Below are positions 4,766-45,745 of a stretch of DNA of 64,000 nucleotides, in pieces (positions within the stretch are counted from its first letter, which is position 1; each line of letters opens with the position of its first letter). Under the pieces are notes generated by a model, which searched no databases, was not told the DNA's origin, and was given only the letters and a program-made list of their open reading frames with translations. Both the position numbers and the translations under genes were made by a program. The DNA comes from a virus (taxonomy: Duplodnaviria > Caudoviricetes): the IMG/VR virus record IMGVR_UViG_3300001598_000037, positions 1 through 64,000 of that record. One strand, 5' to 3'.

Positions 4766-5089
4766 ATGGAAAGATATTATTATAAAGATGAAAAAGGTAA
4801 TTATTATAATTATACTAAAATATATGAAGGTTTAATTCCGATTACAGAAGCAGAATGGAATGAACATGTAAAAACAGAAGAACCTTCGGAAAAGCAAAAA
4901 CAAATCTGGGCTAAAAATAAAGAAATTATTATTTTAAAAGAAAATTTATTAGCTACAGACTATCAAGCTATTAAATACGCTGAGGGCGAAATTACTATTC
5001 AAGACTACGAGGCAATTAAATTACAACGACGTACTTGGCGTATTCAAATTAATGAATTAGAACAACAAATAAAAAATATAGAGAATTAA
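4766..5089 (+). CDS. Tail fibre assembly chaperone-like protein
   Basis: Directly follows the fibre gene. LATDYQAIKYAEG...IKLQRRTWRIQINELE resembles small fibre-associated chaperone proteins. Confidence 0.6.
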   Translation: MERYYYKDEKGNYYNYTKIYEGLIPITEAEWNEHVKTEEPSEKQKQIWAKNKEIIILKENLLATDYQAIKYAEGEITIQDYEAIKLQRRTWRIQINELEQQIKNIEN

Positions 5090-5090
5090 C

Positions 5091-5119
5091 TTGACGTATG
5101 TCAACTAATACTATATAAT
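5091..5119 (+). promoter_or_regulatory. Sigma-A-type promoter with a dyad over the -35 box
   Basis: TTGACG, 17 nt, TATAAT; inverted repeat TTGAC-GTAT-GTCAA at 5091-5104. Confidence 0.8.
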
Positions 5120-5125
5120 AATAAC

Positions 5126-5770
5126 TGTGATAAGGGGAGATCAACCAAATCTCCCCCTCACAATATCTTAATGATATAACTAATGAAATCATTGTATCTG
5201 GGTGCACAACCGTTATTATATGCGGTTCCCAGAGACGAGCACAGTCTAGGAAGATACTTTAATGATAGTTAGAGTATCGAGCCCAGAGCCGAGTAGTGAT
5301 ACTTGGTAAAGAGCCCTCAACATGGGGCGATAATGTGACGTTGTGCGAGGTTATTATCTGTTTAAGCTATCAAATCTTTCGCAGTAGCAATAGACGCCCC
5401 AGTGGGGAATAATCCTAAAGTGGTCGGCTCGGCCGCCGATGCGGGGCTTTAGGAAATGCCAATCAATACTGTGTGCCTTGATGTATGGGAACATAATATA
5501 AGAAAGAGGAGAGTAGGAGTAGTCGTATGGCACATTACAAATAACGAGAAAGCATAAAAAATGGATATATTTTTTTAATGGATATATTTTTTTTCTGAAC
5601 GTTCGATGAAACTTAAAGGTATTATTCCTTTCGGTGATTAAAGCGGCAAGAAGTGTGGGGGTCGCGACCTCATGCTCAGACTTGTTGTATCCGTTAGCTA
5701 ACAAGACATTTAATAATTGAGTAGAGTGAAGGCTCACAATATTTCATTAGTTATGTCATTAAGAATTTTT
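5126..5770 (+). ncRNA. Large structured non-coding RNA (~600 nt), ROOL/GOLLD-class candidate
   Basis: Own promoter; 24-bp closing helix 5166-5189 with 5741-5764 (one G-U); many internal stems, GNRA loops (GTGA, GGAA); raised GC; U-rich 3' end; no credible + strand ORF. Confidence 0.7.
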
Positions 5771-6173: not shown

Positions 6174-6545
6174 ATGAAATATGTATCAGATGATGGTAAA
6201 ATTTATAATTCTTTAGAAGAATGTAAAGAAGCCGATAAACAATATGCAGAAAAAAATAAAGCTGCATTACAATTAAAAGAGCAAAGAATTGCAGATGCAA
6301 AAAAGGTCGAAGAAGCTTTTAAAGTTATTGCTACTTTAGAAGATGAATATAACAAAAAAATTAATGAAGCTATTGATGCTTATTACAAGGAAAGAAATAA
6401 CTTTATTAAAAAATATGGCAGTTATCACATGACATTTAAGAGTGAGAATCCCGCCGATATTCGTTTATTATTTGGCGACGGCAGACGTATTAATTTAAAT
6501 AGTATGTTTGATGAACTCATTAAATTAATGTATAGCATAAGATAA
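6174..6545 (+). CDS. Hypothetical phage protein (123 aa)
   Basis: AGGAGG SD; N-terminal YVSDDGKIYNSLEEC followed by a coiled-coil segment. Confidence 0.7.
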   Translation: MKYVSDDGKIYNSLEECKEADKQYAEKNKAALQLKEQRIADAKKVEEAFKVIATLEDEYNKKINEAIDAYYKERNNFIKKYGSYHMTFKSENPADIRLLFGDGRRINLNSMFDELIKLMYSIR

Positions 6546-6865: not shown

Positions 6866-9800
6866 ATGGCTAATGTAATTACTTTAAATTTCAAAGATAA
6901 CACAAATCTTAAAAAAGAAATTAATAAACTTGATGATTTCACAGATGAAATGAAAAAGAGTTTGATCAATTATTTGACTCAAGCTAATGAAGCAATAGTA
7001 GATAAACAAATTGCTTCAGAAAAAACAGTTGAACAAACTATTAGTTATCTTAATAAAGTTATGGGACAATTTAATAAAGAAGTGTCTATGTTTACTAAAA
7101 AAACAGCCCACGGCACAAATTTATATTTAGGTCTACATGAAAAAGGCACTCAAATTGATCCAAGCAAGATTGCAAAAGAAATGACTATGAAATTAGGAGT
7201 CATTGAAAAGGGTGTAGAACAAACATATAAAGGTCTACAACATGACTTGCTCGTAATGACACAAGACGGCGTTATGGGTGCTCAACAAGCTATATTAGAA
7301 ACTATAGGCGGTATGGTAGAAACAATTGATATTGAATCAAAAGAATGGGCAAGCAATTTAAAAGCTGCTCTTACAAAAGGTACTGCTGGTTTTCAAACTT
7401 TACAAAGACGTGCAAAAAAAGAAGTTGAAGCGCAACCTCAATTTATTTCGAAGAGCGATCAAAGTGATTTCAATCGTCAAATGCAAATGGTTGATAATCA
7501 AATAAAAAATGCGATTAATGGAACTAAAACTATAAATATGACTAAATACTTCCATGAAATGATGTATCGTGGTGGTCAAGGTACACAATTTGCTGGTCTT
7601 AGTAAAATAATGAATAAATATCGTCAATTAGACAAAGTTTATAAAATGCAAGGGGCAGGTTTTGATAAATTCAGAGAAGATGCTGCCATGTTAATTTCTC
7701 TAAAACAAGCAGGTTATACTAATAAAGAGTTAGTAGGTAAAAATGGTTTTGAATTATTTAAGGACTGGACCGAAAAAGATCTTAAAAACTTTTTCGATTT
7801 ACAACAAATTGCCAAAGTAATTAAATTACCTGGTAATATTAATAATACATCTCAAAGCTCGTTAAAACATGGACAAATTAGTATTGGAGGAGCTGAACAA
7901 ACTTTTGGTGGTTTAGGCAAAAATTTCTCAAGAAAATTTATGCAAAATTTACAAGAAGCCAAGAATATAGTCGCTCCTACACATGGTATTAAAAAGCGTT
8001 TCGGAACTCAAAATGAAAATTATGATGCTCATGATTATGGAACTTTAACTTCTGACGAAAAAGCAATGTCAGGATTTTTAAGGACATTAGAAGCTGATTT
8101 ACGCAAACAATTAGAATCAGGTTCTGATGCAAATTTTAAGAAGATGTCCGCTGCTCGTCAAAATGAATTAATTAGAAAGAAAATTGTTCAACAATATGGT
8201 GATGTATATAATGCGTTTAGAGAAGGTAAAGTATTTGTCGCAAAAGATCTCCAAGAAGATTTAATTAAAGAAGAAAAAGGATCTATAAGTGTTAGCGGAG
8301 ATAAATGGAAAGCAGAATTAGAAAAACAACTTAAACTTTCTTTAAAAGATAGTAAATATAAGAGTTTAAATTTAAAGAAAGGTACTACTTTTGATTCTAT
8401 TGTATCAGGTGCACAATATAAAGAATTAAGAGAAGAAGTTATGAAAAATGCGCTAGGAGTATTAGATCCTAGAGTTTTAGCTCATAAAAATAGTTTAAAA
8501 ATTAATCCTGCAAATATTATTACAAATGGTATTATGAAGGATATTCAATGGTCTTACAGTGAAGCATTACATAATGGAAGCAAATTAATTGCGCCTGGAC
8601 AAGATGAGCGTGTTACTACCACTCTTGTGGATCGCAAATTTATTGAAAAATTTGCTGAATATGTTTTAGGTAAAGATTACGCAAAATTTAATAAAAATCA
8701 TAAAGTAGACGTATTAAAAGGCCGAGAACATGAAATGGGTTATAAGACTATGGCCAGTGATATTACTGGTATTACAAAGTCTTTAATTCAAGAACGTGTG
8801 GCCGAAGGATCATCGGCTGGTCAAACAGAAGAACAAGTTATTACACAAATTAATAAAGAATTAAATAAATTTTTAAAAGATAACGGATACGGTTCTGTCA
8901 AAGCTGAAAATGGTAAAATATTAGATAATACAGCTGTTTTAGAAACTATTAATAAAATTAAAGATGAGTCTTTACGTATTCAAAAAACTGAAGAATTTTT
9001 AATGGGCTGGTTTAATACTCTAAAAGCGGGTACAGCCGAACATTTTATACAACAAGTAGTTGACAGCGAAGGAAATATTAAATATAAAAAAGACAGTAAA
9101 GGAAATTTTATATTAGATAGTAATAATAATAAAATTCCAGAAATTCGTTCAGGTATTAAATTTAATACTCCTGCTTTTGGTTATAATTCATATGCATTAC
9201 ATAATGCGAGAAGTTATGATGACGTCTTTATTAAAGCACAAAGAAACGGTCAAGGTTGGGGTATTGGTGGTTATAGAGGACGTCAATCTTTAGGACTAAG
9301 TACAGGAATTGCTCGTTCAATTGCTGGCAGTGAAAGAGATTTAGAAAGAATTAAATCATTAGAAATGGTCCTAGACTCTATGTATAGTAATACAACTATG
9401 AGTTCGGAGCAATATGACGACTTAAAAAAAATGGCTCAAAAAATTAATCCACTTAATCAACCAGACCGTTCGAAAATTGGTCAAAATAACATCATTGACC
9501 TTAAAGAACTATATGGTATGAAAGAAATGGAAGAATTAGGGGAAGAAGATTACGTCGGAGGTAAAATTACTCAAGAGGCTTTCTCAAAAACTATTGAAGG
9601 TAAAATTGGTAAAATCATTAATGAACGAAATATCACAGGAGATGTATATGTTCAAACTCCTAATGGCGATTTAATTTATGTACCATCATCTGATAGCCAA
9701 GAGTTGGGCAAAATCGCTGGCGGCACGTCAAAAAAACGTCTTGAACAACTTACAGATGGAGATAAAGTTCAAACTGTAGTTAGTTCAGATATTATGATGC

Positions 9801-11638
9801 AAGGATCTGGCTTTGGTTCTTATATTAATAGTTTACTTAATACATATTTTGATGACGAAGGCAATAGGAAGCAAATCACAGAAAAAACACATGAGTTTGT
9901 ACAAAATGCTCAAGAGACTTACTACAATACAGTTAATACATCCTTCCAAAAAGGTGGAATGATTTATGATGCTGCTTCTCATAGCGCGAGTACGTCAGCT
10001 ACGTATGGAAAATCTGAAAGTTTTAATACACATGAAGTGGAACAATTATATCAAGAATATAAAGACGCAACTGATCCTGAAGACAAGGCATTGTTAAAAC
10101 AAAAAATTTTACAAGCTACAGGCGGTATTACATTATCAAAAGATAATTTAGCAAAAATGCTAACAACTGCACCTGAATTAGATGGTGAAGATAAGAAGAA
10201 ATGGAAAGAAGTTAATAATGCTCGCTTACTTGGAATGTACAAGGCGTTAAGAGATAAATATCAACAAAATTCGGCCTACACATTCGAAGGTGATGAAAAA
10301 ATTGGCAAATGGGATAGCAAAAAGTTGGCCTCTGAAATTGCTAGTATCGTAGACACAGAACGAGAGGGATATAACGGGGAAAGTTTAGCCTCTATTGTTG
10401 GCCGTTATCCATTTTCACATGGTGAAGACTTAAAATTTGCAGGTTTAAGAGTTGCAGGAAATTCTGATGTTGTTAAAATCGGAACAGGATTAGCTAAAGA
10501 AATAAATGCGGACTTCGATGGTGACTCTATTCTTTCAATGTTATTAGGTTTTAATATTAAAGATTTTAGAGAAAAAACAAAAGAACAAATTGCACAAATT
10601 TTCCAAGAAGCTACAACTGCATCTTATAAAATTCAAGAAGTGCATGAAAAAAGAGCTCAAGTAGCTGCGGCTGCTCAAGCTATGGCACAAAAAAAAGATG
10701 AAGAAGAATGGGCTGCTGCTGGATTAACCCTTGATGAACAAAAAGCCCTTAAAGTTGCAGCCGCTGGACAAAGAACCGCTATTGAAGCAGGTATTGCTGA
10801 AAGATTTGGTAAAGAGAAAGTTGGACAATTTTCTAATATTTATCAAAATTTACACAATGGTCTAGTAGGCATGAAAATCAGTTCTGAAGGAAATTTACAA
10901 GGTAAAGACAGTGAAGATGCAATGGCTGCATTGGCAGTGAGCTCGATTTTTGAAGCTGTTACGCAAGAAGCAATTTCATCTAAAAAAATATTAGAGGGTG
11001 GAGTCGAAGGCAAGTTCTTCAAGAATTATATGAATAATATAATGAAACTAACATCCATGTTTGATCCTACTAAAGAAGGAGATTTCCAACAAAAAGATTT
11101 CTTCAAAATTTTAGATGATTTAGGTATTAATGCGGGTTTTAAAAAAGGAGAAGGCTCTTCATTTTTCGCATCAAGAATTGGTACACAAATTGCTACAGAA
11201 ATGTTGCAGTTTGGTAATCGAGCAGAGGCACAAGAAAATTTATGGAATTTAATATCAAGTTCTGGTTATAATGGAACTAAAGACGATTTTCTAAAGATTC
11301 TTCCTCAATTTGATGAAAACGGCGTATTAAATACTGCCGAATATGAAAAAAATAAAGATGCGTTTGAGAACCTATTTACAAAAGATGTTTTATCTGGTAT
11401 GTTTACAAAGTTAAACACTAGTTTAACAGGTAAAAATTGGCAAGATACATGGAATAGAGTTTTCACAGCTGGACAGAATGGTATATTTGACATAGCTACT
11501 CATAAAGCCGATAGACCTGGTACAGAAAAGATGATCGATGTTGACGCTGCTATGGAAGCCCAAATGCAAGGCATGGGAGCTTTCGTTGGTAGTTTAATTG
11601 AGGCAACATCAGCATTAAAAGAATTTACTGGTGCCCTA
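6866..11638 (+). other. Putative virion RNA polymerase region of the tape measure polyprotein
   Basis: RYPFSH (nt 10403-10420) and NADFDGD (nt 10505-10525), spaced like NRxPxLH...NADFDGD of beta-prime; downstream VGQFSN and QEAISSKK resemble the motif order of single-chain two-barrel polymerases. Confidence 0.75.
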
Positions 11639-14600
11639 GGCGGCTCTGGAGGCGGCGGAGGCGGAGGAGGTATCTTCCGTAGTCCATTTGATGTGGCTAA
11701 GCAATTGGGTGAAAATGAAAAAGGATTAATTAATTCATTTAATTCTTGGTCAGCATCTAAAATTACAAATGCTTTAAATCCAACAAATTATGACAATCAA
11801 CAATATCTAGATAAACAAATCAAAGATATTATTGAGGGAAAAGCTAAATATAAAAATGACTTCTTTGGCTATGGTAGCGCTGAAGAATTACAACAAGCAG
11901 TCGGCGGACATTATCTAGCTGCAGATGCTGGTCACGTTTCAGAAGACGTTGCCAACGTATTTATGCAACTAAAGAAAATGGGCTTAGACGGTAAGTATAA
12001 GAGTTTTGATGCAGTATATAATGATGTTCAAAGAGGTGCTTTTAAAGGAGTTAAAGGTGTTTCAACGCTTAAAGGTTTAACAGAAACAGCTTATAGAACT
12101 ATTTATGGCGGTAAAGTTGGTAAAGATCGCGTAATCGGATATAAAGAAAAAGAAGAATTATTACAACAAGCATTGGGCGATTTATATGGTGACTCAACTT
12201 TAGCAAAACAAATAGAAACAGGTATTGGCCAAAGCGACATGTTATCAACCTTATTAAATTTCAGAGGATATGATAAAACTAGTAGCGGCACTGAAACTAT
12301 TTCAGCAGGTTTTTTAGGAAATCAAGGCACTATTACTAGAGCCGACTATTCTACTTTATTAAAAACCGATGCGTTCGGTAATAAGAAAGACACTTTCGCA
12401 TTCTTTGATTTTAAAAATAAAGATAAAAAAGCTGTCGGTGTTAGTGACGTTATTCAAGGTGTTTTAAACTATAATAACCTTGAAACTATGAGACAACTTG
12501 CTCATCAATATGAAAATTTTGAAGATTTTAAAGATTTAGATATCTATAAAAATTTACAATCTTCTTGGGAATATTTTAACCCAGGCGAAAAATTTGATGG
12601 TGCAAATTATTTTAAGAGTTTAAAGAAAGCCGATAAGGTTGAAGGTTACGTAGCTCAAGGTAATAAATTACATAAATTAAATATTGACCAAACTAGCCTT
12701 TCTCGTTATATGAAGATCGTTGATAATTTAATGAATGGCAACGGCACTTTAGATGATTATCGAGATGAAATTGGTCGTTTATATAGTAATATCCCTCTTC
12801 CAGGAACAGTAGATTTACCTGGAAATGAGTATATGGGAAAAGGTATTGGATTGGCCAAGGATTATTTAAATGTTCAAGACAAAATTGATGCATTAAATGA
12901 TCGTAAAGGACAAATTGAAGGCAATTCTGAAGCTGAGGAAAAATATAAAAAAGTACTAGAGGAAGAAATTGCATTACTTCAACAACGTAAGAATTTAATT
13001 GAAGAAGCTATTAAAGCTGACGATAGTAAAGCTGGTATTGATAAAGATATTCAAGACGAATATCAAAAACGTGCAGACAAAGAAGCTGAACGACAAGCGA
13101 AATTAGATGAAGAAGCCAGAAAAGAGGCTGAAAAAGAGCAAAAACAAAAACAATTGCAATTTAATCAAAATCTTAAAGGTTATGATGCATTACTTAAAGA
13201 AAAAGCTAAATTAGATGCTGAATTATATAAAGTTGAACACCAAGGCGGTAATCTAAAAAATCCGCAAGCTACTCAAGATTATATTAAGGAATTAAAGAAT
13301 CAACAACAATCTAAAGAAGCTGAAATTCAAACTTATCTTGCTGAACATGATATGAGTCTTAATCCAGAAGAAGTTGATAAAATTAAAGAAGAGGTAGATA
13401 ATGCTGCTCATTTAAAACAATTAAAAACTGATACTGGTATTAAAGTTAATGAATATTATGGTTTTTTGAGCGATAAACAATTAGTTAGTGCTAGTGGAAA
13501 TGTTCGCGCACAATTGGCCGAAAAAGAAGATCAATTAAAGAGTAGTTCGGTAGTTACGGCAACCTTAACAGAAGCCGAGCAGTTAGAAGCCGAGATATTT
13601 AAAAATGATCTTAAAGAGGAAATTGCTCTTTTAGAAAGAAAGAAAGAGTTAATTGACGATGCGATTGCGGCTATTGATGATCCAAAGAGAAGAGAAGCAA
13701 TCAATGGTGAAGCCGCGATGAAAGAACGAGCTAAACAAGCTCGTTTAGAAGAAGATCATCTAAAAGAATATCAATCATTAATAAAAACACGTACTGTTAC
13801 TAATAAACAGTTTATGGATGCGGCATATAATACAACCTTTGCTAAAGATCCAAAACAACAACAATATTTTGCTCAAAATCAAGCAGAATTAAAAAAACAA
13901 TTAGAAGAGCAAGATCGAATCATTAAACAATTTGAGGAAACTCATGGTTATGATAATAATGATAAGGCGAAGAAAATTCGTGACGATGCAGCCGCTAAAA
14001 GCCAAATTGAGCAAAATAATATTATGGCCCGTGCTGTGCAAGCCGAAAAACAACAAGGCGTTCGTGGATTTATTGGTAGTTTCGGTTCGAATTTCGCAAA
14101 ATCTGCTAAGCAATTCTTAATGTATCAAACTTCATTTAATGCGTTGTTCCAAAAATTAAGACAAGGTCTTAAAACTGTTGAAACACAAGTTAAATCAATG
14201 AATAAATCATTAGTGGATTTACAAATTGTTACAGGTAATACTAAAGAAGAAACAATGAGTTTACTTACATCTTATAGTAAATTAGGTAAACAACTTGGTG
14301 CAACTACTACGGAAGTTGCTAATGCTGCTAACTCTTGGTTAAGACAAGGTTATGAAGCTGCTGATGTTACAGAACTAGTTACATCTTCTTTATATCTAAG
14401 TAAATTGGGTATGATCGACTCTGCTCAAGCTACACAAAATTTAACATCAATGTTAAAAGGTTTTAAACTTGAGGCTAGCGATGCAATTAGTGTTGTAGAT
14501 AAATTAGTTAGTGTTGATATGAAAGCAGCTGCCAGTGCAGGTGGTATTGCTGAAGCATTAAGTCAATTTGCTACAACTGCACAATTATCTGGTTTAGATA

Positions 14601-17600
14601 TGGACAAAGCTATTGCGATGGCGACAACTATTATGGACGTATCACAAGCAGCTCCTTCAAGTGCAGGTAATGCATTAAAAACCATTCTTTCTAGATTTGG
14701 TAATGTTAAAGCTGGTGCTTTTGAAGATATGGGCGAAGGAGAAGACGGCACATCAATAAACGATGTTGAAAGAGTTATTAAAACTTTGGGTATTTCACTC
14801 AAAGATAGTAAGGGCGATCTTCGTGATTTTAGTGATGTGTTGGAAGATATCGCTGAAAAATGGGCAAGTATTGATGAAATTAGTAAAAATGCGTTGGCAA
14901 CAGCTTTTGCTGGTACAAGACAACGTGAATCATTCCTTGTTTTAATGGAAAATATGGATAAATACCATGAATTAATTGAAGTATCGGCTAATTCAGAAGG
15001 TACTGCAATTAAAAAATATAATGCTTATTCTGATAATTTAGAAGCATCTCAAAAGAGAGTTGCGGCAGCATGGGAAGAATTAGGTAATAATGTTAATTTA
15101 CAAAATTTAATGATTAAAATTAATGAAATTATCGAAAAACTGGTAGATATTCTTCCTTCATTAATTAAATGGACTGAGAGAATTGCCTCTTTACGTATCG
15201 GTGCTGGACTCGGCCGTATTCTTGGTACAGGGCTTACTACTGGTCTCGCAGGAGCTGGTAGTCGTTTATCTGGTTTAGGAGTAGTAGGCGGCATTAAAAC
15301 CGTGGCGTCCGACGTTACTTATGGCGGAGTTTCATTACTGGGAAAAGGTCTTAAAGGCATAGGTGGCTTACAAGGTTATAAAATGAATCAATCACAAACA
15401 GTGATTCAAACATTAATATCTAAAGTTACTACCTTACAGCGTGCCATTGAAACGAATACACGTGCTGTTTTAGGAAATACACAAGCCGAACAGCAAGATA
15501 ATCAAAATGGAACAGGTGGATCAACACCAATATTTAATAGTGGTGGATATGTAGCGGCGCAAAATTTAATTAATACTCAAGGAACAACAATTAATGGCAC
15601 TCAAGTATTACAACATACTTATAAAAATAAAACATATCAAATGGACCCTAAAACAGGGAAAATGTATAAAGTTCTTAAGAACGGACAATTATCAAAATGG
15701 GCGGCTCCGTCTAGAGTGACCAAAGATATGGTACAAAAAGATTCTACTGGTACTTATCAAAATTATTTTAATCAAATGAGATTAGATCAAGGTAAGACTT
15801 TAAATAAACAACAAATAAACAATATTAATAGTCAGATTGCTTCTAATAATAAAACCCTTCAAGGTTGGACGAAAAACGACAAAGGTCAATGGATATCAAA
15901 GAAAACAGGAAAAGTAGCGAATAAGAGTTGGACTACACGCTTAAATAATGCCCAAGCTAGTAATGAACAATTACAAGCACAACAACAACAAAGTGAGGCT
16001 AATAAAGCACAAAAAGGTAGTGCGGCTGCTGGAGTTATGATTCAGATGGGCGCAGCGATGGCAATGGGAGGACTTATGGGCTCTCAAAATTATGCTAAAT
16101 CTTCGACTATTACTGATTCGACTGGCCAAGAAATTCAAGCGGCTATGACAAAAGAAGAAGAAGCGACAAGTAGAAAATGGAGTACTGTATCAGGTATTGC
16201 TTCTGGTATTCCAATTTTCGGTCCAGCTTTTTCACATTTATATGATTTAAGTGTAAAAAACAATTGGGGTAACAAATATGGCGTCAGTCGAGGCTTAGCT
16301 CGATCAGAACAAGAAGCAGCCAATAGTAAAAAGACATTGAATGCTATTACAGGAAATCTTGATAAATTTGCCAAAGCTGCAAGTTCGGGCGATTTAGATA
16401 GCGGTAAAAAAGAATTAGATGATATGATCTCGACTTTATATAAACGAGATGAAGAAGGTCGTGATGTAAATAAAACAGGAAGAGAACAGTATGAAAAATA
16501 TTTAAAAAATATTTTAGGTGATAAGTTCGGTTCTAATTTATTAGAAATTACTAAAAATGTTGAAGGTGATGTCGCCGCACAACGCGAATTATCTCAAGCA
16601 ATGTTAATTGCCCAAGAACAGGCAAATAGAGAAAATTTTATTGCTTCAAATGCAAAAGAAAACAATCAACGCGGAAAAGCGGCTGACGAAGCTTGGTTAA
16701 AATATAAAGACAGTGATTATCAAGAAAAAGTTAAGGCGGCTGGTAATAAGGCTGGATGGGAAACTGGCGCTACGGTTGGTGTAGCATCTGCCGCCGCCGT
16801 TATTGGTGTCGGAGCTGCTATTGCAGGCGGCTTGTCTAGTATTCCTGTTGCTGGTTGGATTGCGGCTGGTGCAACTATGGTTGTAACGGGCGTTACTGCT
16901 GGTATTGTGGCAGCCAAGGAAGCAGAGTTAAAGAAACAAGCTGAATTAGAAGCTGCAAATGCCGAACGTGGTAAAACATATGAAGATAAAATAAATGAAG
17001 TTGAAGCGGCCATTGATTTAGCTCGTACTGAAGGTGATACTGCTGCAATTTCTGAACTTCAAGAAATCAAAGATACATTACAACAAATTCAAATTGAACA
17101 AGAGCAATATTACAAGGAATTAGACGAATCATATGCAAAAGAAGCTGTTCTAGGTATGAAGAGTGCTGACGGTACTTTCTTAGCCAACTTCTCAGAAGCT
17201 CAACTAAAACAAAATATTGGTAAAAATGGTATTGAACAAGCATTTGGAGAATATTTAGAATCTATTGGTGGTTTATATAATTCTGATGTATTTAGTACCG
17301 ATGGATCATTGTCTGAATATGCTCAATCATTATTAAAAACTGCCATTAAAGAAAATTCCACATTAAATGCTGTGTATACTGGAAATGCATATACATTATC
17401 AGAAGCTTTACAAAAGAATGATACAGATTTATTACAAAATTTTGCCACTGCTTTAGGAGTTTCGGTTGATGCATTGAGTAATATGGAGGATCAATTTGGA
17501 CGTATTGAACTCGGCGATTTCATGTCGACGATTGATGATTTGAATACTAAGATGAGTAAATTAACTGAAAATATTACTTTCTTAACTGATTCAACTAAAT

Positions 17601-19642
17601 CTCAATATGAAAAAGAAATGATGATTATTAATCAGTATCCTGAATTAATCAATTTAATGGGAGATACTCCAGCCTTATTGTCAGAATTTTGGAAAGATCT
17701 AGGTCAATTAGCAAATGTTCAAGCTGAAAAATTAATCCAAGAAATTTATGATCAAGAAGAATATTATACAAAGACTTTATTACCAGAACTTCAAAAGAAT
17801 GAGCAATTTAGCGCCAAATTTAACACAGTTGGTGATGAATTAAGTTCTGTAACTTCAATTACTGGATTAATGAAATATTTAGCGCGCAATGGTGATTCAG
17901 ATTTTTCATCGACTATTCAAGAACTAGTTGCTGGGCAATTAGAAAATGTGGATGCGGTAGTGGATGTATATCGTGAGTTATTTGATCAAATGGATGAATA
18001 TAAAGTTCATCTATTAGATGAACAGTTAGAAAACTTAAATAGCCAAAAAGAAGCTTTAGAGCAAATTACTGCTCAACGTGAATACGAAAATAAATTATTG
18101 GAAGCTCGTAATAAGTTAGAAACAGCTTTAAATGAGAAAAAACGTGTTTGGCGAGAAGGTGTTGGCTGGGTTTATGAGGCTGATCAAGAAGCAATTGCCG
18201 CAGCAGAAGAAGAACTCGATAGTCTTAGTACAGAAAAACAAATTTCTAATTTGGAAGAAACCATTAAAGAGATCGAGGCTGAAAAACAACGTATTTCAGA
18301 TCGCAAAGATGCTGAAAAATGGAAACAACAACAAGAATTGTTTGAATCTTATTTTGGTAAAGGTGAGGGTTCTGTCAACTCATATATTCAAGCGGTTCAA
18401 ACTGCTGTTGAAGGAATTCAAATTGATGTTGGAGGCACGACAGGTGCAATTAATGAAGATATTGAAAACAAAGAGCTTGCGCGTCAAGAGGCCTTATATG
18501 GCGCTGGTGGATCTAAAGATAATGTAAAAGGTGGTTTAGCTGCTGCTAAATCGAAGTTAGTTGAATTGTCAGCTCAATTAGAAGGCAAAGATAAACTACA
18601 AATTACCAATGAACAAAGATCGGCATATAATGATGCATTAGAAGAATATAGTAATTTAAGAACTCAAGCTCTATCCAACGGTTATATTTCATCGGATGAT
18701 TTAGATTACATGTCAACGACTTCTATGGGTGGCACAGTCACTGATAATCTTTATAATGGTGGTTCAAAAGTTAAGGGACAAGATGTCTTCCTTACAAACG
18801 ACCGTAATGACGGTAGTGGCGCTTATAAGAAATATATGGTTGGTGATATGACAGCGGCCGACTCTCAAGAAGCTAAGTGGGTATATGGCGATATGACAGA
18901 AAAGAAAAAATGGGCTCATGGTTTCTTACCAGATGGCACAGTTATTTATTTCTGGAATGGTATGGCCTATAGTAAACCTGGTGCTAAAGATATGAAAGCT
19001 AAAGAAAGATTAAAATATGAATTAACTCAATATTCAGTTGGCGATGCAACCGATTTATCAAGTTATGCGTCTAAAGTAAAAAATATTCTTTTAATTGGCG
19101 CTCATGGTGATCAAGAAGCTGTTGTTATTAAAGATGGTAATTTATTTACTGCGTCCGTTAATGATATGAGCGAGGAGGAAAAGAAACTACTTGCTGGCAA
19201 AGGTGGAGGTTATTATTTAGATGGATCTGGTACAAGATCTGGCGCATGGGGCGAAAAAGGAGCTATTGTTGGCGCCAATGCTTTGGGTACGCTAAACTTT
19301 GCTGGTGGACCATCTCTAATTAATGAATTAGGAACGGAAGCTATTATTACACCTCATGGAACTATTACTTCTCTACCTTCTGCAACAGGTATTGTTCCTG
19401 CTGATATTACCAAGAACTTATGGCAATTAGGAGAATTAGCTCCTGCTATTGCTCAAGGTCTTATGATGCCTGGATTCGGTTTCAATTCAACATTTGGAAC
19501 TCCAGCTAATCAATCTGCTGTTGATGAATCATTTAATATTACAAATCTTACAATGAATGTTTCAGCTGATGATTCATTTGATGCCGATGCTTTCGTTAGA
19601 GCAATCCGCACAAAAGCTGATCTAAGCCGTAATAGTCGTTAA
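6866..19642 (+). CDS. Giant tail tape measure protein fused to an N-terminal two-barrel RNA polymerase and a putative nuclease domain (4258 aa)
   Basis: AAGGAGG SD; NADFDGD at residues 1214-1220; TP901-type tape measure core at about residues 2410-2740; hydrophobic Gly/Ala segments; C-terminal ANALGTLNFAGGPSLINELGTEAIITP motif typical of tape measure C-termini. Confidence 0.85.
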   Translation: MANVITLNFKDNTNLKKEINKLDDFTDEMKKSLINYLTQANEAIVDKQIASEKTVEQTISYLNKVMGQFNKEVSMFTKKTAHGTNLYLGLHEKGTQIDPSKIAKEMTMKLGVIEKGVEQTYKGLQHDLLVMTQDGVMGAQQAILETIGGMVETIDIESKEWASNLKAALTKGTAGFQTLQRRAKKEVEAQPQFISKSDQSDFNRQMQMVDNQIKNAINGTKTINMTKYFHEMMYRGGQGTQFAGLSKIMNKYRQLDKVYKMQGAGFDKFREDAAMLISLKQAGYTNKELVGKNGFELFKDWTEKDLKNFFDLQQIAKVIKLPGNINNTSQSSLKHGQISIGGAEQTFGGLGKNFSRKFMQNLQEAKNIVAPTHGIKKRFGTQNENYDAHDYGTLTSDEKAMSGFLRTLEADLRKQLESGSDANFKKMSAARQNELIRKKIVQQYGDVYNAFREGKVFVAKDLQEDLIKEEKGSISVSGDKWKAELEKQLKLSLKDSKYKSLNLKKGTTFDSIVSGAQYKELREEVMKNALGVLDPRVLAHKNSLKINPANIITNGIMKDIQWSYSEALHNGSKLIAPGQDERVTTTLVDRKFIEKFAEYVLGKDYAKFNKNHKVDVLKGREHEMGYKTMASDITGITKSLIQERVAEGSSAGQTEEQVITQINKELNKFLKDNGYGSVKAENGKILDNTAVLETINKIKDESLRIQKTEEFLMGWFNTLKAGTAEHFIQQVVDSEGNIKYKKDSKGNFILDSNNNKIPEIRSGIKFNTPAFGYNSYALHNARSYDDVFIKAQRNGQGWGIGGYRGRQSLGLSTGIARSIAGSERDLERIKSLEMVLDSMYSNTTMSSEQYDDLKKMAQKINPLNQPDRSKIGQNNIIDLKELYGMKEMEELGEEDYVGGKITQEAFSKTIEGKIGKIINERNITGDVYVQTPNGDLIYVPSSDSQELGKIAGGTSKKRLEQLTDGDKVQTVVSSDIMMQGSGFGSYINSLLNTYFDDEGNRKQITEKTHEFVQNAQETYYNTVNTSFQKGGMIYDAASHSASTSATYGKSESFNTHEVEQLYQEYKDATDPEDKALLKQKILQATGGITLSKDNLAKMLTTAPELDGEDKKKWKEVNNARLLGMYKALRDKYQQNSAYTFEGDEKIGKWDSKKLASEIASIVDTEREGYNGESLASIVGRYPFSHGEDLKFAGLRVAGNSDVVKIGTGLAKEINADFDGDSILSMLLGFNIKDFREKTKEQIAQIFQEATTASYKIQEVHEKRAQVAAAAQAMAQKKDEEEWAAAGLTLDEQKALKVAAAGQRTAIEAGIAERFGKEKVGQFSNIYQNLHNGLVGMKISSEGNLQGKDSEDAMAALAVSSIFEAVTQEAISSKKILEGGVEGKFFKNYMNNIMKLTSMFDPTKEGDFQQKDFFKILDDLGINAGFKKGEGSSFFASRIGTQIATEMLQFGNRAEAQENLWNLISSSGYNGTKDDFLKILPQFDENGVLNTAEYEKNKDAFENLFTKDVLSGMFTKLNTSLTGKNWQDTWNRVFTAGQNGIFDIATHKADRPGTEKMIDVDAAMEAQMQGMGAFVGSLIEATSALKEFTGALGGSGGGGGGGGIFRSPFDVAKQLGENEKGLINSFNSWSASKITNALNPTNYDNQQYLDKQIKDIIEGKAKYKNDFFGYGSAEELQQAVGGHYLAADAGHVSEDVANVFMQLKKMGLDGKYKSFDAVYNDVQRGAFKGVKGVSTLKGLTETAYRTIYGGKVGKDRVIGYKEKEELLQQALGDLYGDSTLAKQIETGIGQSDMLSTLLNFRGYDKTSSGTETISAGFLGNQGTITRADYSTLLKTDAFGNKKDTFAFFDFKNKDKKAVGVSDVIQGVLNYNNLETMRQLAHQYENFEDFKDLDIYKNLQSSWEYFNPGEKFDGANYFKSLKKADKVEGYVAQGNKLHKLNIDQTSLSRYMKIVDNLMNGNGTLDDYRDEIGRLYSNIPLPGTVDLPGNEYMGKGIGLAKDYLNVQDKIDALNDRKGQIEGNSEAEEKYKKVLEEEIALLQQRKNLIEEAIKADDSKAGIDKDIQDEYQKRADKEAERQAKLDEEARKEAEKEQKQKQLQFNQNLKGYDALLKEKAKLDAELYKVEHQGGNLKNPQATQDYIKELKNQQQSKEAEIQTYLAEHDMSLNPEEVDKIKEEVDNAAHLKQLKTDTGIKVNEYYGFLSDKQLVSASGNVRAQLAEKEDQLKSSSVVTATLTEAEQLEAEIFKNDLKEEIALLERKKELIDDAIAAIDDPKRREAINGEAAMKERAKQARLEEDHLKEYQSLIKTRTVTNKQFMDAAYNTTFAKDPKQQQYFAQNQAELKKQLEEQDRIIKQFEETHGYDNNDKAKKIRDDAAAKSQIEQNNIMARAVQAEKQQGVRGFIGSFGSNFAKSAKQFLMYQTSFNALFQKLRQGLKTVETQVKSMNKSLVDLQIVTGNTKEETMSLLTSYSKLGKQLGATTTEVANAANSWLRQGYEAADVTELVTSSLYLSKLGMIDSAQATQNLTSMLKGFKLEASDAISVVDKLVSVDMKAAASAGGIAEALSQFATTAQLSGLDMDKAIAMATTIMDVSQAAPSSAGNALKTILSRFGNVKAGAFEDMGEGEDGTSINDVERVIKTLGISLKDSKGDLRDFSDVLEDIAEKWASIDEISKNALATAFAGTRQRESFLVLMENMDKYHELIEVSANSEGTAIKKYNAYSDNLEASQKRVAAAWEELGNNVNLQNLMIKINEIIEKLVDILPSLIKWTERIASLRIGAGLGRILGTGLTTGLAGAGSRLSGLGVVGGIKTVASDVTYGGVSLLGKGLKGIGGLQGYKMNQSQTVIQTLISKVTTLQRAIETNTRAVLGNTQAEQQDNQNGTGGSTPIFNSGGYVAAQNLINTQGTTINGTQVLQHTYKNKTYQMDPKTGKMYKVLKNGQLSKWAAPSRVTKDMVQKDSTGTYQNYFNQMRLDQGKTLNKQQINNINSQIASNNKTLQGWTKNDKGQWISKKTGKVANKSWTTRLNNAQASNEQLQAQQQQSEANKAQKGSAAAGVMIQMGAAMAMGGLMGSQNYAKSSTITDSTGQEIQAAMTKEEEATSRKWSTVSGIASGIPIFGPAFSHLYDLSVKNNWGNKYGVSRGLARSEQEAANSKKTLNAITGNLDKFAKAASSGDLDSGKKELDDMISTLYKRDEEGRDVNKTGREQYEKYLKNILGDKFGSNLLEITKNVEGDVAAQRELSQAMLIAQEQANRENFIASNAKENNQRGKAADEAWLKYKDSDYQEKVKAAGNKAGWETGATVGVASAAAVIGVGAAIAGGLSSIPVAGWIAAGATMVVTGVTAGIVAAKEAELKKQAELEAANAERGKTYEDKINEVEAAIDLARTEGDTAAISELQEIKDTLQQIQIEQEQYYKELDESYAKEAVLGMKSADGTFLANFSEAQLKQNIGKNGIEQAFGEYLESIGGLYNSDVFSTDGSLSEYAQSLLKTAIKENSTLNAVYTGNAYTLSEALQKNDTDLLQNFATALGVSVDALSNMEDQFGRIELGDFMSTIDDLNTKMSKLTENITFLTDSTKSQYEKEMMIINQYPELINLMGDTPALLSEFWKDLGQLANVQAEKLIQEIYDQEEYYTKTLLPELQKNEQFSAKFNTVGDELSSVTSITGLMKYLARNGDSDFSSTIQELVAGQLENVDAVVDVYRELFDQMDEYKVHLLDEQLENLNSQKEALEQITAQREYENKLLEARNKLETALNEKKRVWREGVGWVYEADQEAIAAAEEELDSLSTEKQISNLEETIKEIEAEKQRISDRKDAEKWKQQQELFESYFGKGEGSVNSYIQAVQTAVEGIQIDVGGTTGAINEDIENKELARQEALYGAGGSKDNVKGGLAAAKSKLVELSAQLEGKDKLQITNEQRSAYNDALEEYSNLRTQALSNGYISSDDLDYMSTTSMGGTVTDNLYNGGSKVKGQDVFLTNDRNDGSGAYKKYMVGDMTAADSQEAKWVYGDMTEKKKWAHGFLPDGTVIYFWNGMAYSKPGAKDMKAKERLKYELTQYSVGDATDLSSYASKVKNILLIGAHGDQEAVVIKDGNLFTASVNDMSEEEKKLLAGKGGGYYLDGSGTRSGAWGEKGAIVGANALGTLNFAGGPSLINELGTEAIITPHGTITSLPSATGIVPADITKNLWQLGELAPAIAQGLMMPGFGFNSTFGTPANQSAVDESFNITNLTMNVSADDSFDADAFVRAIRTKADLSRNSR
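11740..12480 (+). other. Putative PD-(D/E)XK (RecB/Cas4-like) nuclease domain inside the tape measure polyprotein
   Basis: SWSASKI...AGHVSE...E1810...RAD(1827)...DFK(1848-1850)...Q1864-Y1869, following a poly-Gly linker at 11639-11671. Confidence 0.5.
14100..15100 (+). other. Tape measure core domain (TP901/PhageMin_Tail-like)
   Basis: MNKSLVDLQIVTG...YSKLGKQLGATTTEVANAANSWLRQG...AGNALKTILSRF...ALATAFAGTRQRESFLVLM. Confidence 0.85.
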
Positions 19643-41878: not shown

Positions 41879-44800
41879 ATGTACGTATCACTTCATAATC
41901 ACACAACGGCTAGTAATATTAAATTTTTAGATTGTATAAATAGACCAAAGGACATGGTAAAGAAAGCAATTAGTTTGGGCTTCAAAGGAATTGCTGTAAC
42001 AGACCATGAATCTTTGTCGTCTCATGTTGATTTTCTTAAGATCAAGGATTCAATAAAAGACTGTAATCCTGATTTTAAGATTATTTTTGGTAATGAGATA
42101 TATTTAATTGATGATGGTCAATATAAAAATACAAATGATTTCTACCATTTTATTTTATTAGCAAAAGATAGGGTTGGATATAATCAAATTCGTGAATTAT
42201 CATCACGAGCATGGGCACGAAGCTATGTCTATAAAGGTATTCGTCGAACACCTACTTTTTATACAGATATTGAAGAAATTCTTGGCAAAGATCCTGGGCA
42301 TATTGTGGCATCCACTGCATGTTTGGGCGGCGAATTAGCAAAAGCTATATTATCAAAAGATGCAGATAAATTAAATAAATTTATTACTTGGTGCATTAAA
42401 GTCTTTGGTCGTGATTCATTCTTCTTAGAAATGCAAGTATCTGACTCTGAAGAACAAGTTAAATGTAACAAATATATCATTAAAGTTTCAGAACACTTTG
42501 GACTTAAATATATTGTTACAACTGACTCGCACTATTTAGACAAGGAAGATTTTAAGTTATTTACATCTTTCTTAAATAGTAAAAGTAGCAGCGATCGTGA
42601 AACTGAATATTTCTATAAATATACTTATATGATGTCTGAACAAGAAATGTCAGACATTCTAGCTACTACGGGAATTACATATGAACAAACCGCAGCAGCG
42701 ATTAATAATACTTATCTTATTTATAATATGATTGAAGATTTTGATTTTAGACATGGGACTATTGTTCCTACTATTAAAATTCCTGAATTTCAATCATTAG
42801 GTGTTTTAAAACCTTATTATGAAAAATATCCTATTATTAAATATATGGATGAAAGCGAATACGATCAAGATCGTTATATGATGTATTTAATTGAAAAAGG
42901 ATTAGTAGATAAACATATTATTATTAATGATAAAATTGCCGCTAGAATCACGGAAGAGATTGATGTAGTCAAATATATCAGTGAGCAATTAAATCAACGA
43001 ATTAGCGCCTATTTAAACCTTGTAAAAGTTATTGTAGATATCTGTTGGACTATTAGTCCTGTGGGTGTATCTAGAGGATCAGCTGGATGTTTCTATATTA
43101 ATTATCTTATGGATATTGTTCAAATGAATCCACTAGATTATGATTTACCTTCTTTTAGATTCTTAAATAAAGCTAGAGCCGATGCTCTACCTGATGTAGA
43201 TATCGATATTGATCCAAATAAAAATGATGCTGTTGTTGCAGCCTTAAAAGAATATTTTGGTCATGATAATGTAATTAATTGCGCTACTTTTAAAACTGAA
43301 AAACTTAAATCAGCAGTGCTTAATTCAGCAAGAGCATTAGGATATAATAACGATGAAGCGCAAGCTATTGCAGCACTTGTTCCACAACAACGTGGAATCA
43401 TGTATAGTCTTAAAGATTGTTTAGAAGGCGATGAAGAAAAAGGATTGGTTCCTGTTCCAGCATTTATTGATAAACTTAAATCTTATGAGGGATTATATGA
43501 GATGGTGGAAAAAGTGGAAGGTCTTCCTACCAACGCTTCTATACATGCGAGTGCATTATATATCTTTAATAATGGATATGATGCTCAAAACTCTCTTATG
43601 AAAGCTCCGAATGGTACTAACATTACTGCATTAAATATGCACGATAGTGATGATTGTGGAGCCTTAAAAATGGACTTATTAAAAACCGACGCTGAAACCA
43701 AAATAGGTAAAGCTATGGATTTATTGTTAAGAGATAATTTAATTGAATGGAAAGGTAGTTTAAGAGATACTTATAATTATTATTTACACCCAGATAAATT
43801 AGATTATAATAATGTCACTATGTGGGAATTAGCAGCTGATGGAAAAATTCCAAATTTATTCCAAATGGAAACATCTGTTGGCCAATCCGCTATTAAAAAA
43901 ATGAGACCAAAAACAGCTGAAGAATTAGCAACAGTTAATGGTTTAATTCGTTTAACAGGCGGTGAAGGAGAATCTCCTGTCGATCGTTATACAAGATTTA
44001 AACAAGACATTAATTTATGGTATAAAGAAATGAAAGAATATGGTCTAACTGATCATGAGCAAGAACTATTACGTAAACATTTAGATTTTACATATGGTCT
44101 ATGTTATAATCAAGAAGCCTTTATGTTAATTTTAATGGATCCTGAAATTGGTGGATTTACTCTAAAAGATGCTGATAAAGGACGTAAGATCTTAGCGAAG
44201 AAAAAGGTTGATGATATTGCCGCTTTCAAAGAAAAATTCTTAACCAATACAGCTTCTACTCACGAAGAGTTTAAACAATATGTGTGGGACAAAATGATTG
44301 CGCCTCAAATGCAATATTCATTTAATAGAGGACACGGTGTTGGATACAGTCTTATTGGACTTCAAGAAATGAATTTAGCAACACGTTGGAATCCATTATA
44401 TTGGGCTTGTGCTTGTCTATGTGTTAATAGTGGAAACTCAGATACCAACTTTGAAGATAGTGATGAAGACTATGATGAAAGTACTTCTGTAGAAGTAGTT
44501 GAAGAGGCATCTGATGATAAAAAAGAAAAATCATCTGCGCCAAACTATATTAAAATTGGCAAGGCATTATGTGATGCTCAACATGAAGGAATTAAAATCG
44601 GTTTACCAGATATAAATAAATCGGAAAGTGATTTTTTACCAGATGTATCGAGTAATTCAATTCTTTATAGTCTTAAAGCAATTACAAATGTTAATGATGA
44701 TCTTTATGAACGAATTGTTGCAAACAGACCTTATTATAAAGTTTCGGAATTTATTGAAAAGGTACAGCCTACTACAGCGCAAATGGTAAGTTTAATTAAG

Positions 44801-45745
44801 TCTGGAGCATTTGATAATTTAATGCAAAAGCCAAGAAATTATATCTTAAGATCTTACTTTGTGTATTGTGCTAAACAATCAATTCAAAAGAAAGAAAAAA
44901 TGACGGCGACACAATTAAAACAAGCCATTGAATTAGGTATGGATTTGGAAAAATATCAAAAGAATTTAAGAGTATATAAATTCCAAAAATATATTGAAAA
45001 AAATCAACACGATGTAGCCAATAAGAGATATTTATTAAACGAGGAAGATTGTGTTAAATTCTTTAAGGTTATTATTTTACCTAATCTAAAAACTGATGAT
45101 TATAATGTTCTTCCTGGCGGAGATATTGCAGTTAAATGTACAGTATTAAATAAAATTATTTCAACATTAACTGCTCCTATTATGGAATATCTATCATCTC
45201 CAGAGGGAATTGATGCATTTTACAACGCTCAAATTGAAAATTATGTTAAAGGTATGGAAGAAAAATACTCTATTGGTAATCAATCAGCTTGGGAATTCCA
45301 AACAATGTCATTTTATCATGGACCTCACGAATTAGAGGGTGTTAAATTATTAACTGATCCTATTTTACATTTTCATAATTTACCAGACAATTCTGATAAA
45401 TGTTGTTATATTGCAGGTACTGTCATTGGTGCTGAAAATGGGAAACATTTAGTTTATTTAAATACCACATCTGGAGTGGTCGCAGCTAAGTTTTATGCAA
45501 GTAACTACATATTATATAATAAGAAAATTAGTGTAGTTGATCCTGATACAAAGAAGAAAACTGTATTAGATGACTCTTGGTTTAAAAAAGGTAATAAAGT
45601 TGTTATTTATGGTCAACGTAAAGAAAATATTTTTGCGACTAAAACCGATCGTAGTAGTGGCTATAATAGAACAGTAGGTTTAATTAAAGCCGTAGGATCA
45701 AATGGCGTTATGGATATTGCTTGGACAAGACAAAAACAAAAATAA
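41879..45745 (+). CDS. dnaE: DNA polymerase III alpha subunit (family C, DnaE-like with PHP domain)
   Basis: PHP HNHT, TDHE, STACLGG, TTDSHY; SRGSAAG-like VSRGSAG; catalytic LPDVDIDID and LKMDLL; FNRGHGVGYS; C-terminal OB fold. Confidence 0.95.
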   Translation: MYVSLHNHTTASNIKFLDCINRPKDMVKKAISLGFKGIAVTDHESLSSHVDFLKIKDSIKDCNPDFKIIFGNEIYLIDDGQYKNTNDFYHFILLAKDRVGYNQIRELSSRAWARSYVYKGIRRTPTFYTDIEEILGKDPGHIVASTACLGGELAKAILSKDADKLNKFITWCIKVFGRDSFFLEMQVSDSEEQVKCNKYIIKVSEHFGLKYIVTTDSHYLDKEDFKLFTSFLNSKSSSDRETEYFYKYTYMMSEQEMSDILATTGITYEQTAAAINNTYLIYNMIEDFDFRHGTIVPTIKIPEFQSLGVLKPYYEKYPIIKYMDESEYDQDRYMMYLIEKGLVDKHIIINDKIAARITEEIDVVKYISEQLNQRISAYLNLVKVIVDICWTISPVGVSRGSAGCFYINYLMDIVQMNPLDYDLPSFRFLNKARADALPDVDIDIDPNKNDAVVAALKEYFGHDNVINCATFKTEKLKSAVLNSARALGYNNDEAQAIAALVPQQRGIMYSLKDCLEGDEEKGLVPVPAFIDKLKSYEGLYEMVEKVEGLPTNASIHASALYIFNNGYDAQNSLMKAPNGTNITALNMHDSDDCGALKMDLLKTDAETKIGKAMDLLLRDNLIEWKGSLRDTYNYYLHPDKLDYNNVTMWELAADGKIPNLFQMETSVGQSAIKKMRPKTAEELATVNGLIRLTGGEGESPVDRYTRFKQDINLWYKEMKEYGLTDHEQELLRKHLDFTYGLCYNQEAFMLILMDPEIGGFTLKDADKGRKILAKKKVDDIAAFKEKFLTNTASTHEEFKQYVWDKMIAPQMQYSFNRGHGVGYSLIGLQEMNLATRWNPLYWACACLCVNSGNSDTNFEDSDEDYDESTSVEVVEEASDDKKEKSSAPNYIKIGKALCDAQHEGIKIGLPDINKSESDFLPDVSSNSILYSLKAITNVNDDLYERIVANRPYYKVSEFIEKVQPTTAQMVSLIKSGAFDNLMQKPRNYILRSYFVYCAKQSIQKKEKMTATQLKQAIELGMDLEKYQKNLRVYKFQKYIEKNQHDVANKRYLLNEEDCVKFFKVIILPNLKTDDYNVLPGGDIAVKCTVLNKIISTLTAPIMEYLSSPEGIDAFYNAQIENYVKGMEEKYSIGNQSAWEFQTMSFYHGPHELEGVKLLTDPILHFHNLPDNSDKCCYIAGTVIGAENGKHLVYLNTTSGVVAAKFYASNYILYNKKISVVDPDTKKKTVLDDSWFKKGNKVVIYGQRKENIFATKTDRSSGYNRTVGLIKAVGSNGVMDIAWTRQKQK

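Follow-up and report, generated by a model that had tools for sequence, protein, structure and literature searches.

A putative two-barrel RNA polymerase fused to the tape measure protein of an SPbeta-like phage

The subject of this analysis is a giant tape measure protein (TMP) encoded in the IMG/VR virus record IMGVR_UViG_3300001598_000037; the window, i.e. the whole stretch of DNA analyzed, consists of the first 64 kb (64,000 nucleotides) of this 90.8-kb record, for which CheckV estimates a completeness of 66%. The N-terminal region of the TMP contains, with the canonical spacing, the catalytic signature of the beta-prime-type barrel of two-barrel RNA polymerases (RNAPs). The interpretation toward which we lean, with no great margin of confidence, is that this region is a tape measure-borne two-barrel RNAP that is delivered at infection. 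An earlier note on this DNA, made from the sequence alone, had proposed an RNAP fused to the TMP; the catalytic signature, the fusion and the conservation of the signature in seven proteins bear this out in part, whereas the two double-psi beta-barrels are unconfirmed and no profile similarity to a known RNAP is significant.

The catalytic signature in the tape measure protein

The TMP (hereinafter P0001) is encoded by a single open reading frame (ORF) without stops, with an AGGAGG ribosome-binding site 8 nucleotides (nt) before the ATG. The parts of this ORF are as follows, in window coordinates and amino acids (aa) of P0001.

6866–19642, plus strand: giant tape measure ORF, 4,258 aa
6866–11638, plus strand: N-terminal region (aa 1–1591), candidate single-chain two-barrel RNAP by its signature motifs
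9254–9283, plus strand: GWGIGGYRGR (aa 797–806), another candidate for the second barrel's basic motif; GW.LGGYKGR in the homologue P0002
9950–10165, plus strand: conserved blocks at aa 1029–1100 (KGG..DAA..YGK; GITLSK..KMLT), the second and fifth most conserved windows
10403–10420, plus strand: RYPFSH, with the Arg-x-Pro (R1180/P1182) of a beta-prime-type barrel; all seven members of the family have RxP
10505–10525, plus strand: NADFDGD (aa 1214–1220), candidate Mg-binding residues D1216, D1218 and D1220; aligns to the catalytic loop of vaccinia Rpo147
10820–10837, plus strand: VGQFSN (aa 1319–1324), with invariant G1320; colinear with [IV]Gx[IY][ST]N of the YonO family
10964–10987, plus strand: QEAISSKK (aa 1367–1374), candidate bridge-helix-like element, with invariant Q1367, I1370 and K1373
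11639–11671, plus strand: GGS-poly-Gly linker GGSGGGGGGGG (aa 1592–1602), read in the translation
14003–15301, plus strand: tape measure core (aa 2380–2812), Pfam PF10145 and PHROG 4211/28
16715–16942, plus strand: Gly/Ala-rich hydrophobic stretch (aa 3284–3359), read from the translation

The motifs lie exactly where the earlier note had read them, with RYPFSH beginning at R1180, 34 residues before N1214, and with the region of interest ending at nt 11638, immediately before the poly-Gly linker. The tape measure core that it had recognized in the same ORF is supported by the Pfam family PhageMin_Tail (PF10145, aa 2472–2682, E 2.7e-28; score 99.6 bits, cut-off 33.2) and by PHROG tape measure families that span aa 2380–2812 (PHROG 4211, E 7.8e-51). 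The hydrophobic stretch at aa 3284–3359, which yields a weak holin-like Pfam match below the cut-off (E 0.02), is probably membrane-inserting. Family-library searches detect no domains in the remaining segments of the TMP or in the upstream ORFs. The segment between the linker and the core (aa 1603–2379, window positions 11672–14002) includes a long Lys/Glu-rich, coiled-coil-like stretch, with no family match and no BLAST alignment with P0002.

Eight residues are invariant across the two-barrel polymerases, namely, an Arg, a Pro and three Asp in barrel A, and an Asp with two basic residues in barrel B (PMC2919709). All five barrel A residues are present in P0001, and their spacing falls within the known range of 33–45: the distance from the Arg to the first Asp is 36 residues, compared with 35 in Escherichia coli beta-prime, 43 in YonO of phage SPbeta, and 45 in QDE-1, in which the Arg-x-Pro is R962/P964 (R446/P448 in Rpb1; PMC2919709). 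The spacing of 33 residues that had been quoted for E. coli, from R425 to N458, was verified on rpoC of NC_000913. When the 76-aa catalytic segment is compared with the whole of the PDB using phmmer, vaccinia Rpo147 is the sole match, in its catalytic loop (whole-protein E 5.4e-4, E 0.016 over the aligned stretch; the profile version of the search gives E 4.7e-3).

The similarity in layout extends downstream of the catalytic loop. An alignment of seven YonO family proteins (SPbeta, D-1873, Perkons, PMBT24, BUCT082, TR-TP1 and a faecal contig) shows the invariant positions D248/G249, R265, K270/G271, R491, P493, D534/536/538, G592/N596 and D624/K627, and the order of motifs is common to the two families: RxP, DxDGD, Gxx[SG][ND], then I..K. 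The earlier note had likened the order of the downstream motifs to that of single-chain enzymes; VGQFSN and AISSKK are colinear with the [IV]Gxx[ST]N and IDxAK of YonO (local hhalign p 0.016), but the Lys of the latter element is one residue off and the Asp is replaced by Ser or Asn. The global hhalign alignment with YonO is colinear through RxP, DxDGD and GxxSN without reaching significance (p 0.07–0.12). A colinear pattern derived from YonO, although composed after the query had been seen, matches P0001 at 1180–1374 and none of the 3,000 shuffled sequences, whereas DxDGD by itself arises in 15% of the shuffles of a protein of this length.

Conservation in a divergent family

When aa 400–1591 are searched exhaustively with phmmer against 1.84 billion representative proteins, a sole homologue emerges, P0002, a protein of 3,998 aa that is 30% identical and is likewise fused to a tape measure. 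Its gene lies on a contig of 25.9 kb (L002), in a tail module that shows synteny, and the ORF there spans 4,009 aa when counted from an upstream start. The tape measure cores of the two proteins are 55% identical, and the GGS-poly-Gly linker is absent from P0002. The proposal had been made to depend on the conservation of the motif in homologues, and P0002 retains RYPLSSGQD, INEDFDGD, GRFSN and TQKAISSKKIL at 30% identity. The most conserved blocks of the N-terminal region cluster at aa 1029–1378; among windows of 15 residues, the most conserved between P0001 and P0002 are 1364–1378, 1180–1194, 1206–1220, 1313–1327, 1035–1049 and 1087–1101, and the window over QEAISSKK tops the list with 12 of 15 residues conserved. 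Given this conservation, the placement of the top windows and the absence of the pattern from the 3,000 shuffles, the motif match is, on sequence grounds, more than a chance occurrence. In contrast, KGREHEMGYK (618–627), which had been put forward as a weaker candidate for the beta-barrel lysines, is rejected as the lysine motif of barrel B because it is not conserved in P0002, which keeps only G619, E621 and K627.

Other searches with the N-terminal region returned next to nothing. The full-length region has no match in Pfam, PHROG or PDB, and neither do its sub-segments, the Rpo147 match of the catalytic segment aside; tblastn against 50,697 phage records is negative; a word index of 5.8 billion proteins yields only the protein itself; pattern and profile scans of IMG/VR and of metagenome and genome contigs give chance matches only; the profile produces a single marginal match of 45 aa in 401 Bacillota genomes, as expected by chance; and a protein atlas search gives no usable match.

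Because the polymerase-like part is too divergent to be found directly, IMG/VR was searched with an alignment of the better conserved tape measure core (A5), which retrieved 11 loci. Five distinct loci among these contain RxP followed, after 36–47 residues, by DxDGD, at a distance of 0.8–1.4 thousand residues upstream of a related core, so that the survey of tape measure proteins suggested in the earlier note adds five phages to the family.

L025: RDP...DMDGD upstream of the core
L030: RNP...DMDGD upstream of the core
L029: RYPLSNAED...DFDGD upstream of the core
L027 (= L028, L035): RYP...DFDGD upstream of the core
L033: RNP...DFDGD upstream of the core

The alignment of P0001, P0002 and these five sequences comprises 1,183 columns, with about 700 aligned positions per pair and pairwise identities of 14–32%. 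Only ten columns are invariant: G1031, P1182, D1216, D1218, G1219, D1220, G1320, Q1367, I1370 and K1373; the Arg of RxP (R1180) is present in all seven sequences as well, although it is mis-columned in the alignment. As judged from this pattern, selection has kept almost exactly the catalytic signature of the beta-prime type together with two downstream elements.

The signature and the tape measure core reside in one polypeptide in P0001, P0002, L025, L030 and, with TAG read as Gln, L029. Two related tape measures, L026 and MT835936, lack the module, and hence, by sequence comparison, the module is a cargo domain that was gained or lost. The frames of L027 (3953–10498) and L029 (3662–10597) are open only with TAG as a sense codon; all in-frame stops are TAG (14 of 14 and 26 of 26, respectively), which indicates that a recoded stop codon is in use, in late genes at least, in part of this phage group. 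In L033 (1853–8836 vs 10602–14870), L027 and L034, the polymerase-like ORF ends 1–1.7 kb before the core, which lies in another frame or ORF; this split could stem from a frameshift, from the insertion of an intron or homing endonuclease, or from a gene that is genuinely in two parts.

The phage and its genomic setting

Several features mark the phage, from its gene content, as a distant SPbeta-like siphophage of Firmicutes. The nearest relative of the DnaE-type DNA polymerase (41879–45745) is SPbeta YorL, at 36% identity over the full length; the tape measure core is, among isolated phages, nearest to those of Psychrobacillus phage Perkons and the SPbeta group; and a full-length ROOL RNA is encoded within the tail module. 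Together with a GC content of about 32%, these features agree with the earlier assignment to an AT-rich, probably Firmicutes phage. The neighborhood of the TMP gene contains the following elements.

5091–5119: near-consensus promoter, TTGACG-17-TATAAT, ahead of the ROOL RNA
5174–5753, plus strand: ROOL RNA (Rfam RF03087, 263 bits, E 5e-59), between the ORFs 4766–5089 and 6174–6545, just upstream of the TMP gene
6174–6545, plus strand: small ORF of 123 aa, directly upstream of the TMP gene; 33% identical to L002 4425–4883
6584–6604, plus strand: hairpin resembling a strong intrinsic terminator (9-bp stem and T run), between the 123-aa ORF and the TMP start at 6866

The 123-aa ORF has no match in the family library search and, given its position, is a candidate tail assembly chaperone. 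Because the terminator-like hairpin precedes the start at 6866, the giant gene may be a transcription unit of its own. Downstream of it, tail proteins are encoded in an order syntenic with L002.

The contig begins inside the tail module, and therefore, the head genes are missing from the record. This bears on the search for a second RNAP: no YonO homologue is detected in the 90.8-kb contig by tblastn or a hidden Markov model (HMM), but this negative result carries no information, since the contig is 66% complete and the head module, which yonO adjoins in SPbeta, is missing from it. Beyond the window, a 186-aa ORF (genome 70847–71407, minus strand) gives a weak match to the YonO family HMM (E 0.0013 among 247 ORFs) but is too short for a polymerase. 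Five more complete relatives (G402–G406, 85–100% complete) were searched for YonO as well. A YonO-type RNAP is encoded, with E <= 1e-120, in four of these, G402, G403, G404 and G406 (117–155 kb; L036–L043), whereas G405 has no match in the same search. In G402, G403 and G404, YonO coexists with a tape measure-linked DxDGD module; G406 has YonO and a tape measure (L026) without the module. This co-occurrence suggests, by analogy, a two-polymerase program with a virion and a non-virion enzyme, as in Thermus phage P23-45.

At the far end of the record, at 65.6–90.4 kb (L020 = genome 64001–84000), there is an early-looking block of small minus-strand ORFs, with several sigma-70-like promoters that have an extended -10 element. 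At the switch between the plus- and minus-strand gene blocks, there are at least three tandem copies of a 10-bp unit, GCTTCGCATC (L020 51–90, genome 64051–64090).

Proposed mechanism

Under the interpretation favored here, aa 1 to about 1,590 of the 4,258-aa tape measure would be a very divergent single-chain polymerase of the two-barrel superfamily, which includes the cellular enzymes, YonO and the RNA-dependent RNA polymerases (RdRPs). R1180 and P1182 would position the substrate, D1216, D1218 and D1220 would bind the catalytic Mg2+, and VGQFSN and QEAISSKK would come after the catalytic loop, as in YonO-type enzymes; the poly-Gly linker and the long coiled region would connect this module to an otherwise normal tape measure of the SPbeta type. 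A tape measure forms part of the tail and, when the phage infects, is driven out into the cell envelope; virions would therefore contain the polymerase, which would go into the cell shortly before the DNA and transcribe a first set of phage genes. In lambda-like tails, the C-terminus of the tape measure is located at the tail tip, so that an N-terminal polymerase would be head-proximal and leave last, directly before the DNA. A separate YonO-type polymerase, probably encoded in the missing third of the genome, about 45 kb, would act later. We infer the fold of the module, its catalysis, its occurrence in virions, its timing and the genes it targets, with packaging, injection and pre-early transcription drawn by analogy from P23-45.

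Evidence against and alternative explanations

Several lines of evidence weigh against this scheme. The first alternative, which we consider unlikely, is that the N-terminal region is no polymerase at all but some other structural or ejected domain, or an Mg-dependent enzyme of a different kind, in which DxDGD and RxP arose by convergence. In its favor, the residues of the second barrel cannot be assigned. The barrel B residues are D837, K979 and K987 in Rpb2 and D709, R738 and K743 in QDE-1 (PMC2919709). The candidates in P0001 are D785/786 with R/K804 and R806, or else D1035 with K1029/K1049 or K1092/K1097; P0001 and P0002 share these residues, but their conservation in the seven-member alignment is inconsistent. 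The blocks at aa 1029–1100 are a candidate, by inference only, for part of the second, beta-type barrel. As to the other candidate, GWGIGGYRGR (797–806) is not conserved in the five distant members; its GGY[RK]GR (801–806), likewise absent from those members, is reminiscent of the GGYKG motif of eukaryotic RdRPs. Alignment to barrel B of YonO gives p 0.33 in hhalign, and the YonO barrel B invariants D248/G249, R265 and K270/G271 have no clear counterpart in the present family.

Furthermore, the fold is not recovered. AlphaFold2, run on two-sequence alignments, gives a pLDDT (predicted local distance difference test) of 34 for aa 700–1591 and of 37 for aa 1140–1400, i.e. no usable model; the inclusion of YonO sequences in the folding alignment was considered and rejected as circular. 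The earlier note had recommended a comparison with YonO and P23-45 gp96; the profile comparisons with gp96, YonO and beta-prime are all short of significance (p 0.02–0.12). The hhalign comparison with gp96 gives a probability of 0.16% and is off-target, as is the match of the seven-sequence profile (p 0.024); the YonO family HMM, built from seven sequences, gives the two N-termini scores of 0.7 and -5.5 bits, with the best domains on the DFDGD loop; beyond the heptad, the segment has no similarity to E. coli beta-prime (p 0.5); and the Pfam beta-prime model PF00623 matches nowhere in the genome. The ease with which DxDGD alone arises in shuffled sequences points in the same direction.

Nevertheless, convergence poorly accounts for an exact heptad NADFDGD accompanied by RxP at the canonical spacing, for a combined colinear pattern that is never matched by shuffled sequences, for a PDB-wide search that matches only the catalytic loop of an RNAP, or for a family of seven proteins, at 14–32% identity, in which the catalytic residues and two motifs parallel to those of YonO are almost the sole invariants. 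The insignificant alignments with beta-prime and YonO are centered on the expected elements: the best match of the seven-sequence profile in beta-prime covers residues 425–466, RxP..NADFDGD (p 0.075), and in the YonO family the profile matches best at the DxDGD loop. Two-barrel families in general share little besides the DxDxD region (PMC10770324).

The second alternative, to which we assign a somewhat lower probability still, accepts that the two-barrel polymerase is real but not that it is injected as a pre-early enzyme: the module might work in the producing cell, e.g. after cleavage of the linker, might replace or complement YonO in late transcription, or might make a primer or short RNA, instead of mRNAs, at DNA entry. 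SPbeta YonO transcribes the late operon (PMC5467207), and the polymerase-like module lies inside a late tail operon; the poly-Gly linker could be a processing site. The probable early minus-strand block, moreover, has an excess of sigma-70-like promoters (101 vs 78 +/- 10 expected), in agreement with the host-type promoters reported in the earlier note, and of terminator-like hairpins (35 vs 8.6 expected), whereas no distinct repeated promoter motif of a phage polymerase is found, only ribosome-binding sites being recurrent. Given these promoters, an injected polymerase is not obviously required at the start, and the host polymerase may suffice to initiate the program of early genes. Delivery would also demand that a polymerase domain of about 180 kDa (our estimate) fit in or pass through the tail tube, a difficulty for the scheme. 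Against a purely intracellular role, P0001, P0002, L025, L030 and L029 all retain the tape measure fusion, which argues that co-delivery with the tail matters; gp96 of P23-45, the sole studied case, is present in virions and transcribes pre-early genes (PMC10770324); and a second intracellular enzyme seems redundant because the complete relatives keep a separate YonO.

It is highly improbable that the module is what remains of a decayed polymerase, without catalytic activity and retained only as bulk or plug of the tail: the extreme divergence and the second barrel without a recognizable basic motif would fit such decay, but relics lose the catalytic residues first, and here almost only those residues are kept across the family.

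Implications

A polymerase fused to a tape measure is known, in the literature searched, only from P23-45 and three relatives, with gp96 as the sole tested case (2024). By sequence, the present family is unrelated to gp96, belongs to another phage lineage and includes a TAG-recoded branch. We tentatively suggest, with rather less confidence than the polymerase assignment itself, that it is an undescribed family of TMP-fused single-chain RNAPs in SPbeta-like gut and rumen Firmicutes phages, some of them TAG-recoded, which operates beside a free YonO in a two-polymerase program independent of that of P23-45.

If this is the case, delivery of a polymerase on the tail ruler would be a recurrent strategy of long-tailed phages, and if the module is active, the strategy would extend to mesophilic Firmicutes phages related to SPbeta, in which genetics is tractable. 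An active module would also bear on the passage of a polymerase domain of this size through the tail tube, on the coupling of DNA entry to the first transcription and on the diversification of YonO-type enzymes. The current family libraries miss such enzymes entirely, given that neither the N-terminal region nor YonO itself has a Pfam match, and for this reason, giant proteins annotated as 'tape measure' may hide more polymerases.

Comparison with known systems

Virion-packaged polymerases within very large proteins that are delivered at infection are represented by gp66 of phi14:2, a crAss-like phage, and by the N4 vRNAP (PMC10770324). The likeness to these is one of concept: both are capsid or internal cargo of podoviruses, as opposed to the tape measure of a siphovirus, and the N4 enzyme is T7-like rather than two-barrel. 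With E. coli beta-prime, the module has in common the identical heptad NADFDGD and RxP 34 residues upstream (33 in beta-prime); unlike the multisubunit largest subunits, it would be a single chain fused to a tail protein, with no match to PF00623 and no other detectable beta-prime or beta domain.

YonO comes from the same phage supergroup (Forrest et al. 2017, PMC5467207; PMC2919709), and its motifs are arranged in the same order, RxP(H), DxDGD, [IV]Gxx[ST]N and then the I..K element. By sequence, however, the module does not belong to the YonO family (HMM score of about 0 bits), and whereas YonO is a free protein of 839 aa made in the cell, the module is part of a virion protein and has about double the length of YonO.

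The precedent cited in the earlier note, gp96 of P23-45, is a TMP-fused virion RNAP for which biochemical proof exists (Chaban et al. 2024, PMC10770324); the gp96 group consists of the Thermus phages P23-45, P74-26, G20c and TSP4. The activity, virion presence and structure of gp96 are proven, whereas those of the present module are predicted. The two have no detectable sequence similarity, the motif is at residue 1216 here compared with 779 in gp96, no metallopeptidase domain is found here in the family-library searches, and the phages differ, an AT-rich SPbeta-like Firmicutes phage in one case and a Thermus oshimavirus in the other. The overall architecture, nevertheless, is the same: in both giant proteins (4,258 aa here and 5,002 aa in gp96), an N-terminal RxP...DFDGD is followed by the tape measure and membrane parts, and in both systems, there is a second, free two-barrel polymerase, gp64 in P23-45 and YonO in the complete relatives of the present phage.

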